A DNA stretch of 64,000 nucleotides from NCBI GenBank assembly GCA_029260215.1, contig JAJDDQ010000076.1, positions 32,148 to 96,147 on the forward strand, given 5' to 3'. Below the pieces are notes generated by a model, which saw only the letters and a program-made list of their open reading frames with translations, was not told the origin of the DNA and searched no databases. Below, in pieces: positions 592-52,831 of this stretch. This stretch comes from Phycisphaerae bacterium. GTDB lineage: Bacteria > Planctomycetota > Phycisphaerae > UBA1845. The translations under genes were made by a program, and so were the position numbers. Position 1 is the stretch's first letter; each line of letters opens with the position of its first letter.

Positions 592-784
592 GCAACAGGT
601 CAGCAATCTGCAATGGCGGTGTTTCGGCATGGAGGCGTGCCGGTTGAGAATAGTGTCGGATGGGTCTAGGGGCGTCCGCGCGGACTGAAGTCCGCGGCTC
701 GTTGGGGCGTACTCGAAATCTGCGTGGAGTGCGGGCGAATGCAGTCCTTGAATGGATTGGCATTGCACACGGCTGACCTGTTGC
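592..784 (+). mobile_element. MITE copy 1 (193 bp), IS66-like ends, internal REP-like hairpin
   Basis: Perfect 13-bp terminal inverted repeat GCAACAGGTCAGC / GCTGACCTGTTGC. 8-bp direct repeat GCTGAGAG at 584-591 and 785-792. Closely related copy at 52601-52792. Confidence 0.9.
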
Positions 785-34885: not shown

Positions 34886-35716
34886 TCACGGCGTGGCGCA
34901 ACAGGAACCCTGAACACCAAACGCCTGCACGCCGTCGAAAACACCATCGCGATCGCTGTCCTTGTCGAGCGGATCCATACTGTGCAGGTATTCGGCGATA
35001 TTGAGCAGACCGTCGCCGTCGGTATCGTCGAACGAATCGATGCGCGTCGGATCCAACCCAACGCGAATTTCCCAATCATCGGGCATCAGGTCCGCATCCG
35101 CATCCGCGAACGGCGGCTCAGCCACAAACGCACGATCACTGCCGCCCGCCCCTGCAAACTCCGGGTTCGGACTGCACTGACAGACGTTGGCCTGCGCATC
35201 TTCGTAAAATGTCTGCCCAAACACACGCACCAGCATGTAGTAAACAAACGCCAGATTATTGCACTGCGTGGCGTCTTCAGTACCCGGTGCGAAATCATCT
35301 TCGCAAACACTGAGCATCAAGAGCAGAAACAGAAAATCGCAGTTCAGTTGAGGCGTGCCGCAAATTCCGTAGCAAACATCATGGACGTTGCACGCCCCCT
35401 CAAAGCAGACCAGCCCGAACGGGCAATTGGCGATCGCCCCCAGGAAATCGACAGGCCCGCAACCATTGAACGACGGAGCACACGGGTTAGGCCCTTCCGC
35501 TGCATCGTTCCACAAGTCTTCTTCAACCACGTCAACAGTCAGGCCGGAATCAGCCACCCACTTCGCCAGCGGCGCATACGACACTTCGCCAGGCAAAAGC
35601 ACCACGGGCTTGGATGCCCGTTTTTCATCACGACCACGATCGACGCCGTAACCACTCGACCCAAGCACCAGCACCGCACACGAAAATACACGCAAAATCC
35701 GTTCCGCCGTCATCAC
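34886..35716 (-). CDS. Secreted phospholipase A2 (group XII-like) with C-terminal TSP3-like Ca-binding repeats
   Basis: NGCG...ACNVHDVCYGICG....CD..F catalytic His-Asp motif; 'YEDAQANVCQC'; DxDxD repeats (DADADLMPDDWE, DTDGDGL, DSDRDGV). Confidence 0.75.
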   Translation of the reverse strand: MMTAERILRVFSCAVLVLGSSGYGVDRGRDEKRASKPVVLLPGEVSYAPLAKWVADSGLTVDVVEEDLWNDAAEGPNPCAPSFNGCGPVDFLGAIANCPFGLVCFEGACNVHDVCYGICGTPQLNCDFLFLLLMLSVCEDDFAPGTEDATQCNNLAFVYYMLVRVFGQTFYEDAQANVCQCSPNPEFAGAGGSDRAFVAEPPFADADADLMPDDWEIRVGLDPTRIDSFDDTDGDGLLNIAEYLHSMDPLDKDSDRDGVFDGVQAFGVQGSCCATP

Positions 35717-35784
35717 ATTCTCCTTAATCCGTTACGTCCGTAGTCAATCCACAGATTCCGAGGCCTCGCAACACCGCCCCATTC

Positions 35785-36028
35785 GTAACTCTTCATCCAT
35801 GTGCAATGCCAAGCCACGACCTGCCCTCGCCTTGCGACAGGAAACGATTTTCCCCCCTTGCAAAGGGGGGAAACAGGGGGGTCTGGATCGGAGTATCGCT
35901 TCGGTTCAAAAAGAGATCCTCCCCCGGCCCCTCCTTCGCAAGGAGGGGAGAAAGAGGGTTACTACCGCATCCACGATATCCAAATAGTGTTTGTCGCCAT
36001 TCGACATTGCACATTACTGAACTCTTAC
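35785..36028 (-). mobile_element. MITE copy 3 (244 bp, degenerate, opposite orientation) carrying an inverted pair of CCCCCTT-N3-AAGGGGG palindromes
   Basis: Ends read inward GTAACTCTTCATCCATGTGCAATG and GTAAGAGTTCAGTAATGTGCAATG and resemble the ends of copies 1 and 2. Flanks CCCCATTC / CCTTACTC match at 5 of 8 positions. Confidence 0.65.
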
Positions 36029-36030
36029 CC

Positions 36031-38916
36031 TTACTCAATCGAACAAACGTTGAACAGGAAATCGCTATTGTCCAAAACCGCCAACCCCAACCAATCGCTG
36101 ACCCCGCATCCAACTGTATCGAAATTCCACAGGAACGTACATCGCGACAAAATGGGAATGCCCGCCCCGTTTGACAGCCCAGCCCCCGACACGGCCGAAT
36201 TGCCAATGAACGCACAATTCTTAATAGTCGCCCGCCCGCCCTGATGATGAACCGCCCCACCGTTGATCGCCGAATTCGAGGCGAACAGACACTGTGCGAT
36301 GCTCGGGCTGCTCTCGACACTCAACAATCCGCCGCCGCTGGAGAACGGAAATGCATTACCGTCCGCATTGCCGGATACAATCAAAAAACCATCCATCACC
36401 GCGGTCGGACCGTTGCTCGTACTGCTGACGACGTGGTAGCTGTTGTCTGCCGCCACGTCAGGCACACCGATATCACCGCTCAGAACCGTCGGGGACGCAT
36501 CCGTATCCCGTTCGGAACGCTTCGCTTCTCCCGCAAACCCATCGGTGCCATACGCGCCTCGAAAGCCGCCATACCAACCAACGCAGTCCTGCATGACAAA
36601 CGTCGCCTCCCGCAATCCGCTTCCGCGATCGGGATAGTAAACACCCGTCGCCACCCAGATTTCAATGGGATTCTCACGCGACGACGCAATATCCAAAGCA
36701 TCCTGAAAATCCCGGCAAGCACTGCCCCAGCTTAGACAATCCCCCGCAACCGGGGCGCGGCTGTCAACATACAAAACCTCCGTCGCACCCGCACAGTAAG
36801 GCCCCAACGCCCATCTGAATGCGTTGCCGAACAGCGACTTGCCCGCCGGCGTCATCGACAACCAGGAATCATCGTCCAGAAAAAGAAACACACGCCGACT
36901 AAGTGCCACGTGTCCGCCAAGCAAAGCAGCACCGACGTCGGCCGTCATCAACGCAATCGCATCGGGATCGGCACCGCTCATCGCAAGAACGCGAACACCG
37001 TCACCAATCGGACCACGCACGCCATTCACGTTGCCCGGCGCACCGTAAACTTGCAGAGAACCCAAGTCGAGTCCCTCGGTAATCGCGTGGGTGGTGTCAA
37101 TGATGGACACCGCCGCCGATGAACCGGGCACATCCGCGAACGCCGCCAAAGGCTCGCGTTCCAAAGCGTTGAGCTGCGACGCCCAATAAGCGACCGGAAC
37201 GGTCAAATACCTGAAATCACCCCCGATGTTGGCAGGATCAACGCTCGAAGACACGAACACCGCGTCGTACGTAGCAGCCAACGCAGCCGACGTAGGCCTT
37301 GAACCCACTTCGTCGTCGTGAAAATCAACCACCCATCCAAGCGCCCGCACAAAGTCCGCCACGGCTGAATCGCCCGCAGCCGGGGGTAACCCGCCCACAA
37401 CGAACGCCACCCGGGGAACATTGCCAACTTCGATAAAGCCGGACTTTTTGATCACGCTCGTACCCTCGGCGGATGTCACCGAAAGTTCAACGCTGTAAAG
37501 GCCGTCGCTGGTGTAGGTGTGCTGCGGATGTTGTTCGACGGACGTGGCTCCGTCGCCAAAATCCCACGCCCATGAAGTCGGGGCAGCCACCATCGAAAGG
37601 TCGGAAAACTGCACAGTCAACGGTGCGACACCGCTGGTAACGTCGGCGGTGAAGTCAGCCGACCCCACGAACCGCACACGCAAAACGTTGGCACCCCGTT
37701 CGGTCGGTGCGCTGGAATCCTGATCCTTGTAAAAATCACTGAAGTACAGCCCGTCAGGCCCCGCAGCCAGTGCGACCGTCGACGCCCTTCCGGTCCCGGT
37801 GTACTCCACAAACGGACGCGGACCGTCGAGGAGTGTCCCGTCCGCCGCCAGCGTGAATTCGCTGATGCGTTTTCCCCGACCAGCCGGCCCCGCCACCCAC
37901 GGCAGGCCCGACTCCGTCACATACGCACGCCCCAACTTCCCAAGCGGAAATCCACTGCCGCCAAACGACTCCGCCTGAACAAATGCGAGATTGACCGGTG
38001 CGCTCGCGGGATACCACGAGTACAGCGCGAAGTTCAGCATGCTCGCGTCCGTACCGTCCCAAGCGAAATTGCGACCGGGAATCACCTGCGCAAAACGGTC
38101 GATGAACGGCCCGTTCCCGACGTAGTACAAAATCCCGTCCGCCGCACGCCACGCACCCCCGAACGGGTTGCGAAAACCGTAAGCGTAAATGTAATCCGTC
38201 GCGTTGATACCGTCAGGCGAGAAGAAGAAAGGATTGTCAGCCGCCGGCGATCCATCAGGATGCATCCGCAGGATTTTCCCGCGAAACGAACTGATATCCT
38301 GTCCCGTTGACGAAATAAACCCGTCACCCATATGCACATACAGCATGCCGTCCGGACCGAACGATAACTTCGAAACCTGGTGGGCCTCGCCCTGCGCTTC
38401 GCCGAACATATCCAGAACGACCGACGCCGACGAAGCCGTCATCCCCCCGTCAACGCTGTGAAGCCGCAGCACCATCGGATAGTGAATGCCCGGCTCGAAC
38501 GGCGAGTCGTACAGTTTGCTGATGAACAGATCGCCCGTCGCGGGATCGATGACAATTCCGGTCAGGCCCTGCTCGCCCGAACCCGGAATGACGCCCGAAG
38601 GCAAAAAATCCAGCAGATCAACGGCGTAATCACTTACGGTGAAGTCGCGTGTCACGACCTTGATCGAACCGTACAGCTCCGTAACGTAGAAGTAAGGGTC
38701 CGACGGGGCATTACCCGGATTGGGCAGAAAGGCGATATTGACCGGCAGTTGAAACCCGGTCGCCACCACTTCGACCTTGAATCCGGGTTCGACCGACCAC
38801 GGCAAATCAAGGCCGGAAACACCTTGCCCGTTGGTCGAAACTCCCGGCGGCAACTCCGCCGCACCCACCGTAAGCGAAATCCACGCAAACGCCGTTGTGA
38901 ACAGGATTGTCTTCAC
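36031..38916 (-). CDS. PQQ-dependent sugar dehydrogenase (GSDH beta-propeller) + PKD domain + C-terminal beta-helix
   Basis: 'GEQGLTGI', 'FGPDGMLYV.MGDG', 'RGKILR', 'YAYGFRNPF'; PKD 'SWAWDFGDG...HTY'; 'DNSYHVV...GGG' beta-helix start. Start set at GTG 38916. Confidence 0.85.
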   Translation of the reverse strand: MKTILFTTAFAWISLTVGAAELPPGVSTNGQGVSGLDLPWSVEPGFKVEVVATGFQLPVNIAFLPNPGNAPSDPYFYVTELYGSIKVVTRDFTVSDYAVDLLDFLPSGVIPGSGEQGLTGIVIDPATGDLFISKLYDSPFEPGIHYPMVLRLHSVDGGMTASSASVVLDMFGEAQGEAHQVSKLSFGPDGMLYVHMGDGFISSTGQDISSFRGKILRMHPDGSPAADNPFFFSPDGINATDYIYAYGFRNPFGGAWRAADGILYYVGNGPFIDRFAQVIPGRNFAWDGTDASMLNFALYSWYPASAPVNLAFVQAESFGGSGFPLGKLGRAYVTESGLPWVAGPAGRGKRISEFTLAADGTLLDGPRPFVEYTGTGRASTVALAAGPDGLYFSDFYKDQDSSAPTERGANVLRVRFVGSADFTADVTSGVAPLTVQFSDLSMVAAPTSWAWDFGDGATSVEQHPQHTYTSDGLYSVELSVTSAEGTSVIKKSGFIEVGNVPRVAFVVGGLPPAAGDSAVADFVRALGWVVDFHDDEVGSRPTSAALAATYDAVFVSSSVDPANIGGDFRYLTVPVAYWASQLNALEREPLAAFADVPGSSAAVSIIDTTHAITEGLDLGSLQVYGAPGNVNGVRGPIGDGVRVLAMSGADPDAIALMTADVGAALLGGHVALSRRVFLFLDDDSWLSMTPAGKSLFGNAFRWALGPYCAGATEVLYVDSRAPVAGDCLSWGSACRDFQDALDIASSRENPIEIWVATGVYYPDRGSGLREATFVMQDCVGWYGGFRGAYGTDGFAGEAKRSERDTDASPTVLSGDIGVPDVAADNSYHVVSSTSNGPTAVMDGFLIVSGNADGNAFPFSSGGGLLSVESSPSIAQCLFASNSAINGGAVHHQGGRATIKNCAFIGNSAVSGAGLSNGAGIPILSRCTFLWNFDTVGCGVSDWLGLAVLDNSDFLFNVCSIE

Positions 38917-52562: not shown

Positions 52563-52600
52563 ACGCACCATCGCGACGGTGCCATATTGCTTTGGAAATG

Positions 52601-52792
52601 GTAACAGGTCAGCAATCTGCAATGGCGATGTCTTGGCATGGAGGCGTGCTGGTTGAGAATAATGTTGGGTGGGCCTGGCGGCGTCCGCGCGGACTGAAGT
52701 CCGCGGCTCGTTGGGTGCATTTGAAAACCGAGCAGGTTACGTACGAATGCAGCCCTTGAGCGGATCGGCATTGCACACGGCTGACTTTTTAC
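52601..52792 (+). mobile_element. MITE copy 2 (192 bp), IS66-like ends
   Basis: Ends GTAACAGGTCAGC / GCTGACTTTTTAC; 8-bp direct repeat TGGAAATG at 52593-52600 and 52793-52800; shares identical 25-, 36- and 19-bp blocks with 592-784. Confidence 0.9.
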
Positions 52793-52831
52793 TGGAAATG
52801 AAAGGGATGCGCCCTTCAATCGCTCGGCTGT

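Follow-up and report, generated by a model that had tools for sequence, protein, structure and literature searches.

REPs, which depend on HUH tyrosine transposases, and MITEs, which depend on DDE transposases, are treated as separate classes of repeat with separate machineries. In type II MITEs the terminal inverted repeats alone resemble the parent insertion sequence (IS), and truncated MITEs can resemble REPs (review PMC10969869); the term IS66 has no occurrence in the available text of that review. In the CGTC-tagged REP superfamily, a unit has a CGTC head that is unpaired, a stem of 8-9 bp whose first pairs are A/T, and a loop of 4-5 (Di Nocera 2013, PMC3733652). The same work describes, for Anabaena variabilis and Halothiobacillus neapolitanus, REP dimers that are regularly embedded in longer palindromic tracts and, in the portion available, reports that REP-free target palindromes were not found. 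A link between REPs and insertion sequences is known from IS621, ISPpu9 and IS1397, which target REPs (Tobes and Pareja 2006, as cited in PMC3184786). Within the IS66 family, the ISBst12 group includes ISDge4, whose end is GTAACTGCTCAGCA; its transposase measures 449 aa and its repeat 8 bp (PMC12898284).

Here we describe short elements of a 4.97-Mb Phycisphaerae-type draft genome in which one set of DDE-type ends surrounds two REP-type units, each composite being present at dozens of copies. The window is a 64,000-nt stretch of this genome and holds three of them (copies 1 to 3). A search of the literature, in so far as the texts were available, returned no description of REP-cored IS66 MITEs.

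Results

Copy 3 is a non-coding element of 244 bp (35785-36028) with 24-nt inverted ends and two perfect hairpins, and is thus as real as the preliminary description had proposed, down to the flanking duplication that has decayed to 5/8 (Table 1). Its two 24-nt arms (35785-35808 and 36005-36028) show 75% complementarity, the left arm being of a sub-type with CTCT at positions 6-9. The hairpins are TTTCCCCCCTT-GCA-AAGGGGGGAAA in unit A (35849-35873) and CCCCTCCTT-CGC-AAGGAGGGG in unit B (35928-35948), and the two units form a tail-to-tail inverted doublet. Copy 3 starts 2 bp past a stop codon, and the right copy of its duplication overlaps the stop codon (36031-36033) of a 988-aa gene on the minus strand. 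A promoter and terminator scan of 35600-36200 placed no site within copy 3, and a search of Rfam gave no family at its gathering score, the top match being whalefall-1 (19.4 bits vs 37).

Table 1. Positions of the elements and their parts in the window.
Feature	Position	Strand	Remark
Copy 1, family-1 element, 193 bp, REP-1 core ~672-705	592..784	+	perfect 8-bp duplication
Copy 3, left target-site duplication copy, decayed, 8 bp, CCCCATTC	35777..35784	.	5/8 identity with 36029-36036
Copy 3, left terminal inverted repeat GTAACTCTTCATCCATGTGCAATG, IS66/ISBst12 type	35785..35808	+	4 mismatches vs 24-nt genome consensus
Copy 3, left subterminal region, family-2-specific	35809..35848	+	alignment of 24 complete family-2 copies
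Copy 3, C6/G6 unit A: 11-bp-stem hairpin, spacer AAACA, G6 run	35849..35881	+	24-copy alignment
Copy 3, spacer between the hairpin units	35882..35920	+	family-2 alignment
Copy 3, C6/G6 unit B, orientation opposite to unit A: C5 run, GG, hairpin	35921..35948	-	family-2 alignment
Copy 3, right subterminal region, family-2-specific	35949..36004	+	family-2 alignment
Copy 3, right terminal inverted repeat, reverse complement GTAAGAGTTCAGTAATGTGCAATG	36005..36028	-	4 mismatches vs consensus
Copy 3, right target duplication copy CCTTACTC	36029..36036	.	5/8 match to 35777-35784
Copy 2, family-1 element, 192 bp, REP-1 core around 52688-52705	52601..52792	+	perfect duplication

The duplications of copies 1 and 2 are GCTGAGAG (584-591 and 785-792) and TGGAAATG (52593-52600 and 52793-52800), and both elements contain CGCGGACTGAAGTCCGCG (679-696 and 52688-52705). 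The end 20-mer of copy 3, TCATCCATGTGCAATGCCAA, recurs on the minus strand at 757-776 with 2 mismatches, which is the 18/20 match to copy 1 reported earlier, and at 52765-52784 with 3 mismatches. Its three matches in the window compare with 0.01 expected, and the similarity exceeds the shuffled control, as none of 100 shuffles reached three. Each copy lies 3' of a gene, again in line with the first description; copy 2 is situated between convergent ORFs, and in the case of copies 1 and 3, the next gene in the same orientation also lies downstream of the element.

Across the whole genome, 140 sites match the 24-nt end consensus at up to 6 mismatches, compared with 2 in the reversed genome. These include 44 end pairs, of which 42 are short. 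Among the short pairs, 9 have identical 8-bp flanks and 14 have flanks that agree at 7/8 positions, so that 23/42 carry a duplication of 7-8/8. Two copies are 99.2% identical yet have different duplications, and copies that are 100% identical over 141 nt break contigs; both features point to activity that may be recent. Examples of young copies are C68:51091-51335, C15:17213-17449 and copy 1. Around 100 loci of this kind break up the genome assembly. Contigs from three DNA runs of one study also break inside elements; none joins across an empty site, and they showed neither an empty site nor a polymorphic insertion.

The same ends are carried by an insertion sequence that is present in the genome as several broken copies. 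At contig edges its right ends encode the C-terminus of a PF03050 transposase, and its left ends are 100% identical on four contigs; contig-end sites that join IS ends to transposase coding sequence number 7 on the right and 4 on the left. Only such contig-end pieces, and no whole copy, were found in this genome and five relatives. Because no complete copy is assembled here, the partner IS was pieced together from contig ends and a relative. A scan of named genomes located the complete element in a related MAG (L048:2819-4416, 1,598 bp), where it is flanked by the perfect 8-bp duplication CCTGGATC. Its sole long sense ORF (P0002, 492 aa) encodes zf-IS66 (PF13005) and DDE_Tnp_IS66 (PF03050, 2.8e-38) domains, with no tnpA or tnpB in the element. 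A GTAA start is known as a general trait of IS66 ends. On sequence grounds, the GTAA start, the 8-bp duplication and an IS66/ISBst12 transposase gene with the same ends assign the ends of our elements to a single-ORF IS66-family (ISBst12-group) insertion sequence, and the earlier naming of the ends as IS66-type is upheld.

The complete elements span 191-288 bp, with no conserved ORF seen and an interior that varies by indels, and form two families with an interior cross-coverage of 0.0. Family 1, which includes copies 1 and 2, has 16 complete copies of ~192 bp; family 2, which includes copy 3, has 24 complete copies of 236-288 bp. Whole elements are ~70% identical. Loci at which a profile match covers at least part of an element number 27 for family 1 and 99 for family 2, 43 of the latter retaining one end only and 25 none. 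The hairpin core occupies one fixed place in 16/16 and 24/24 complete copies, respectively, and no core-less member occurs among them. Family-2 hairpin stems are conserved at 0.96-1.0 across the 24 copies and the loop is conserved less. Neither family was found complete in the five relatives. Elements with the same ends and other contents are a 67-bp ends-only element at C63:176057-176123 and, in one relative (G015), a 172-bp element with a non-repeated interior, both single-copy.

The core of family 1 is a palindromic unit of ~35 nt, REP-1, with 161 cores in the genome, 130 of them outside a family-1 context. Its consensus, gcgTCCG-CGCGGAC-TGAA-GTCCGCG, has a CGTC-like head, a 4-nt loop and a 7-bp stem that opens with G/C pairs, and its stem variants are compensatory between genera. 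The family-1 profile matches 148 loci, 121 of which cover model positions ~76-120 only, with sharp shared boundaries and no family-1 arms. By crude, script-made ORF calls, which define the gene context throughout, 80 of the 130 stand-alone copies are intergenic, 47 overlap ORFs and 3 lie at contig edges; the intergenic ones are found mostly after 3' ends (39 convergent, 36 tandem and 5 divergent). We scanned 30 relatives with fixed patterns, and across them repeat counts and end counts are decoupled. REP-1 occurs in 31 copies in G010 and 70 in G014, each with 0 ends, and in five relatives the family-1 query matched the REP part alone or an end alone, never both together. Inverted REP-1 copies flank a Y1/HUH (RAYT) ORF in three relatives (L060, L061 and L067). 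This RAYT of the relatives is embedded in valS and was not found in the present genome.

The C6/G6 unit, which forms the core of family 2, has 68 matches in this genome. It is also present in relatives with 0 ends (22 matches in G005, 12 in G007 and 15 in G010). End-less singlets and inverted doublets occur both here and in relatives, including ~10 single copies of the unit-B type, a compact doublet at C33:146314-146405 and a further doublet in G005. The doublets have a spacer that is shorter than and different from that of copy 3, and the short spacer within the unit reads ATTGA/ATCGA in stand-alone units, as in the relatives, but mostly ATACA in those borne by elements. With two inverted units and a spacer, the family-2 core has the layout of a REPIN. 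No Y1 gene flanked by C6/G6 units was found in this genome or among 22 Y1 loci of five relatives; one unit lies ~800 bp from a Y1 match in L066. As the C6/G6 unit has no link to a transposase, we class it as a REP by its form, copy number and distribution. Some family-2 pieces that lack ends could have arisen by decay of elements and would then not represent ancestral units.

A cognate RAYT for either cargo hairpin was not found in this genome. Its four PF01797 loci have no cargo hairpin within 1.5 kb, and two types of PF01797 locus are flanked by repeats of their own, with 44 and 19 genome copies. A hairpin beside a Y1-like gene on contig C58 (GCCCACSG..CSGTGGGC) was considered as a further genome-wide repeat and rejected, having 2 matches.

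Discussion

We consider it very probable that copy 3 is an aged member of a type II MITE family of ~245 bp, whose core consists of captured REP-type hairpins and which was moved by an IS66-family transposase. The two families share ends, target duplications and a matching insertion sequence; their interiors are unrelated, and the hairpin units of these exist independently and have a separate phylogenetic spread. The core of copy 3 is not derived from the insertion sequence. Most likely, intergenic DNA with a REP-type element would have come to lie between two IS ends, once per family, and the IS transposase would then have amplified the element in trans, with 8 bp duplicated at each insertion. 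That each family goes back to one capture and later amplification is suggested by the constant position of the hairpin in every copy, and the hairpins would ride along because the transposase amplified the element that encloses them. We infer the mobilisation in trans, the single capture and any benefit of the hairpin core. The preliminary description had proposed that IS66-type ends hold different interiors, and indeed they enclose two without mutual similarity. Its view that DDE ends carry REP-type repeats as cargo also gains support, because both cores are hairpin repeats that exist without the ends as well.

That description had gone further, to interchangeable hairpin modules, to IS66-type ends as a preferred landing site of REPs and to an active coupling of DDE and HUH mobility, in which REP classes would be swapped in a common chassis. 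Such a reading gains from the presence of different REP-type cores in two unrelated families that share their ends, when a random 145-nt intergenic piece would include REP-1 in an estimated few percent of cases (the 621 kb of non-coding DNA contain 130 copies), and from the single-copy state of the end-bounded elements that have no REP core. However, interchangeable modules gain no support, the hairpin position being fixed within each family with no core-less member found, and insertions are not enriched near stand-alone REP-1: 1/41 lies within 50 bp of one, against an expectation of 0.58, a count that is equalled or exceeded in 44% of 1000 random placements. The coupling likewise finds no footing, since the RAYT-like genes here are flanked by non-cargo repeats and the RAYT of REP-1 was not found; nor do repeat and end numbers go together across relatives. 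We therefore regard landing-site preference or coupling as improbable. In our opinion it is less probable still that the elements are MITEs of the ordinary kind, in which the internal hairpins are incidental, and that the stand-alone hairpins are their decayed remnants. MITEs commonly fold into hairpins, their truncated forms can look like REPs (PMC10969869), and many family-2 loci have lost one or both ends. Against this, the 121 REP-1-only loci have sharp boundaries and no trace of family-1 arms, relatives carry dozens of REP-1 or C6/G6 units and no ends, the REP part and the end of the family-1 query were never matched together in five of them, REP-1 brackets a RAYT in relatives, and the spacer of stand-alone C6/G6 units differs from that in the elements.

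The hairpins might instead be host regulatory modules, terminators or RNA-stability elements, which are maintained by selection and have no ancestry in mobile elements. Their stems are far better conserved than the elements as a whole, copy 3 folds much more strongly than its shuffles (z = -4.6), and the 3' bias of stand-alone REP-1 recurs in 31 elements (11 convergent, 19 tandem and 1 divergent). Yet the element holds no terminator-like site, its hairpins are without a T tract and no Rfam family reaches its threshold, while purifying selection against promoter disruption gives a 3'-end bias too. We give this explanation very little credence, and a MITE with a captured REP-type core remains our preferred reading.

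These elements provide a testable case of one selfish DNA class hitch-hiking on another, and bear on how REPs persist where a cognate RAYT is not found. Rather tentatively, we suggest that REP/REPIN populations might switch their mode of spread, being amplified by a DDE transposase once inside IS66/ISBst12 ends. In this genome such a switch may have saved REP-1 once its RAYT was lost, and the strongly folding core may in turn let otherwise inert IS ends amplify. Among the genomes examined, only REP-cored elements reached high copy number, the ends-only and non-REP elements being single-copy; this offers a natural test of whether a MITE spreads better with a structured core.

Our elements resemble type II MITEs in several respects: they are short and do not code for protein, have inverted ends of 24 nt and a duplicated target site, and occur in many, mostly intergenic copies alongside a matching IS of the same genome. 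They differ in that one end set holds two unrelated interiors, each built on a REP-type repeat that exists independently. With the ISBst12 group (ISDge4) they share ends that begin GTAAC..TCAGC and an 8-bp direct repeat, and the IS in L048 also shares the single transposase ORF; unlike that group, copy 3 has no transposase, and no IS copy is assembled whole in this genome. REP-1 is like the units of REP/REPIN-RAYT systems (Nunvar 2010; Bertels and Rainey 2011) in being palindromic, present in >100 copies, mostly 3' of genes, with compensatory stem variants and inverted copies that flank a Y1/HUH gene in relatives, and the inverted doublet of family 2 is like a REPIN. As far as the available accounts describe them, REPs and REPINs are without DDE-type ends and 8-bp duplications, whereas the units here lie inside both. 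Nested REPs and BIMEs (PMC3733652) also have REP-type units enclosed by outer inverted sequence; in the text available, neither an IS nor target duplications are linked to these palindromes, while the outer sequences of our elements are bona fide IS66 ends. Lastly, IS621, ISPpu9 and IS1397 are similar in linking an IS with REP sequences. There the IS enters the REP, whereas the present elements show no preference for REP neighbourhoods and carry the REP within their own IS ends.

Structure and setting of copy 3

Copy 3 (244 bp, window positions 35785-36028) carries paired terminal arms and two hairpins in its interior (see table), and the 8-mers flanking it are identical at 5/8 positions. A 20-mer from its end is found again at 757-776 (18/20) and 52765-52784 (17/20), within copies 1 and 2, giving three matches in the window compared with 0.01 expected from 100 shuffles. 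The preliminary description of this stretch, with its arms, hairpins, related ends and imperfect flanks, was therefore accurate. On the - strand, copy 3 starts 2 bp past the stop codon of a 988-aa GSDH/PKD-domain gene, and a 276-aa PLA2G12-like gene on the same strand begins 68 bp beyond its end. We note that the - strand gene starts directly downstream of copies 3 and 1 (35716-35636 and 538-450) read as signal-peptide-like N-termini. Copy 3 folds far more stably than its shuffles (z = -4.6 as RNA, -3.9 as DNA), and it showed neither a terminator-like site nor a known RNA family.

Coordinates of features (C, contig; G, genome, G000 being the genome studied here; L, locus; bare numbers are window positions)
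Feature	Location	Remarks
Copy 3 terminal arms	35785-35808 / 36005-36028	24 nt, 75% complementary
Copy 3 hairpins	35849-35873 and 35928-35948	both perfect
Hairpin CGCGGAC-TGAA-GTCCGCG	679-696 and 52688-52705	copies 1 and 2
Compact end-less A-B doublets	C33:146314-146405; C23:32990-33104	examples, G000
valS-embedded Y1/HUH ORFs	L061 (G015:C159); L067 (G014:C931); L060 (G005:C9)	
RAYT-like gene L008	C6:38735-39076	own inverted repeats AAAGGGGTCGGGAGTCGTTT, 44 genome matches
RAYT-like genes L009, L010	C34:25608-25952; C63:157152-157496	own inverted repeats GAAACGGGGACGCAGCTAGT, 19 genome matches

The ends and their IS66-family partner

Across the genome (a draft assembly of 4.97 Mb in 88 contigs, 59% G+C, in which the window spans C74:32148-96147) the 24-nt end consensus occurs exactly three times and, with up to 6 mismatches, 140 times, compared with 2 matches in the reversed genome. 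Facing ends form 44 pairs, of which 42 span 67-288 bp and 2 are long-range artefacts. The outer 8-bp flanks of these pairs are identical in 9 cases and match at 7/8 in 14; therefore, the elements are transposon-like and generate an 8-bp target duplication. The 31 elements whose intergenic setting could be classified lie in 11 convergent, 19 tandem and 1 divergent gap, divergent gaps making up 26% of intergenic bases. At C51:697-1189 and C74:18619-19481, members of both families, or a pair of family-2 copies, are separated by no more than a few hundred bp, which may reflect local hopping or insertion hot spots.

One end class is found at contig edges, where the sequence read inwards codes for the C-terminal part of a protein with DDE_Tnp_IS66 (PF03050), and the other, 100% identical across four contigs, leads into the start of an ORF. 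No whole IS copy is assembled in this genome or in five relatives. A related MAG contains a complete 1,598-bp IS (L048:2819-4416). It has the same ends and a single 492-aa ORF with zf-IS66 and DDE_Tnp_IS66, and it is flanked by the perfect duplication CCTGGATC. According to the accessible text of PMC12898284, ISDge4, an IS66 element of the ISBst12 group, has one transposase and an 8-bp repeat, and its end reads GTAACTGCTCAGCA. The earlier assignment of the ends to IS66 is thus upheld by the PF03050 coding sequence behind them, the complete IS and the match to ISDge4. The partner of the elements is an IS66-family insertion sequence, and copy 3 and its kin belong to the type II MITEs, their parent being an IS66 element of the ISBst12 group. 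Longer elements with the same ends are present in related MAGs (L038:82-3558, 3,477 bp; L039:519-3769, 3,251 bp); these contain a transposase ORF and a second ORF of ~447 aa, differ in the right subterminal region and may be a passenger-carrying variant.

Two families with common ends

When clustered, the 41 complete elements with lengths of 100-400 bp in this genome gave family 2 (24 copies of 236-288 bp, including copy 3), family 1 (16 copies of 191-194 bp, including copies 1 and 2) and one 155-bp piece. Mean cross-coverage between the interiors of the two families is 0.0. That the same ends carry different cargo, as had been proposed, is therefore correct: the end pairs enclose more than one interior type, in two unrelated families, and a single type was the outcome named beforehand as refuting the idea. 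Family 2 is old and its copies are diverse (median pairwise identity 0.70; 0.88 between copy 3 and the copy most similar to it). All 24 copies have both hairpins, conservation being 0.96-1.0 in stems and 0.54-0.83 in loops, and a subset has an additional hairpin insertion of 24 alignment columns. Young copies also exist: two are 99.2% identical with differing duplications, and another group shows 100% identity over 141 nt at which contigs are broken. Profile searches recovered 99 family-2 loci, both ends being kept in 31, one in 43 and neither in 25, and 27 family-1 loci bearing one or both ends. Two end-bounded elements without a REP core, a 67-bp ends-only element (C63:176057-176123) and a 172-bp element with a unique interior in G015, are single-copy, a tiny sample hinting that elements may amplify better with a REP core.

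The cores as independent repeats

The core of family 1 is a bona fide REP. Its consensus (REP-1), gcgTCCG-CGCGGACTGAAGTCCGCG-GCTCGttg, has 161 instances in this genome, 130 of them outside a family-1 context, and 121 of the 148 loci matched by the family-1 profile span only model positions ~76-120. By crude ORF calls, 80 stand-alone instances are intergenic (39 convergent, 36 tandem, 5 divergent) and 47 overlap called ORFs, with 3 more at contig edges. Stem variants are compensatory and genus-specific. In G015, G014 and G005 a RAYT-like Y1/HUH ORF of ~170 aa lies between inverted REP-1 copies, and the whole sits in frame within valS; in the 1073-aa frame of L061, tRNA-synt_1 is split into two stretches with Y1_Tnp between them. 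Homologues of this ORF occur in 17/101 genomes of the family, 12 of the 17 in open frames of 989-1561 aa, with valS identity of the host frame checked for three. In G000, valS (C64:~74576-77035) is without such an insertion. In G013, REP-1 also forms head-to-head doublets sharing the palindrome GTCCGCGCGGAC, resulting in 44-nt perfect palindromes (e.g. C321:10385-10428 and C350:14358-14401).

At the core of family 2 lie two C6/G6 units arranged as an inverted doublet. In unit A, a C6TT-loop-AAG6 hairpin is separated by a 5-nt spacer from the G6 run that follows, and unit B has the same build on the opposite strand. Without ends, this genome has units A and B singly (B ~10 times) as well as compact A-B doublets. 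The spacer is mostly ATTGA or ATCGA in stand-alone units, here and in relatives, and mostly ATACA in element-borne units.

In a scan of 30 relatives, the 28-nt REP-1 pattern was counted 126 times in G000, 70 in G014, 53 in G013, 31 in G010, 27 in G015 and 3 in G008. Unit A matched 68 times in G000, 22 in G005, 12 each in G007 and G008, and 15 in G010, and the end pattern 101 times in G000, 31 in G008, 21 in G015 and 0 in G005, G007, G010 and G014. Therefore, genomes exist with either hairpin class and without the ends, while G008 has the ends and almost no REP-1. In five relatives, moreover, a family-1 query matched the REP part alone or an end alone, and a family-2 query unit A alone or an end alone. 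Taken together, the decoupled distributions and part-only matches show the hairpin units to be independent entities that ended up between IS ends in the lineage of G000.

Proposed landing site, HUH coupling and interchange

Stronger claims had been attached to this arrangement. Were the ends a preferred landing site, elements should gather near stand-alone REP-1; of the 41 complete elements just 1 is at most 50 bp from such a copy, compared with 0.58 in random intergenic placement (44% of 1000 trials reach 1), so there is no enrichment. Coupling to HUH mobility finds no support in this genome either. No cargo hairpin of either family was found within 1.5 kb of its four PF01797 loci, and the homologue here of the relatives' REP-1 RAYT, at C58, is just 30% identical with different flanks. 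The RAYT-like genes L008, L009 and L010, which score under the NCBIfam RayT cut-off, are flanked by repeats of their own, and thus at least four dispersed short-repeat classes exist here. Finally, the REP or C6/G6 core occupies one fixed position within each family, which argues against interchangeable modules and fits one capture per family.

Relation to known systems

We found no description, in those parts of the literature available, of IS-ended, duplication-flanked elements with independently existing REP classes as cores, nor of IS66-derived MITEs; IS66 does not occur in the accessible portion of the review PMC10969869. REP, REPIN and RAYT are already known, as are, from the available text of the respective papers, REPs nested in longer palindromes (PMC3733652) and IS elements inserting into REPs (PMC3184786). 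The REP-1 consensus begins with a CGTC-like head. CGTC-tagged REPs are described by Di Nocera et al. (PMC3733652, accessible text) as having no dedicated transposase; were REP-1 a member of this superfamily, the RAYT that it flanks in relatives would be an exception.
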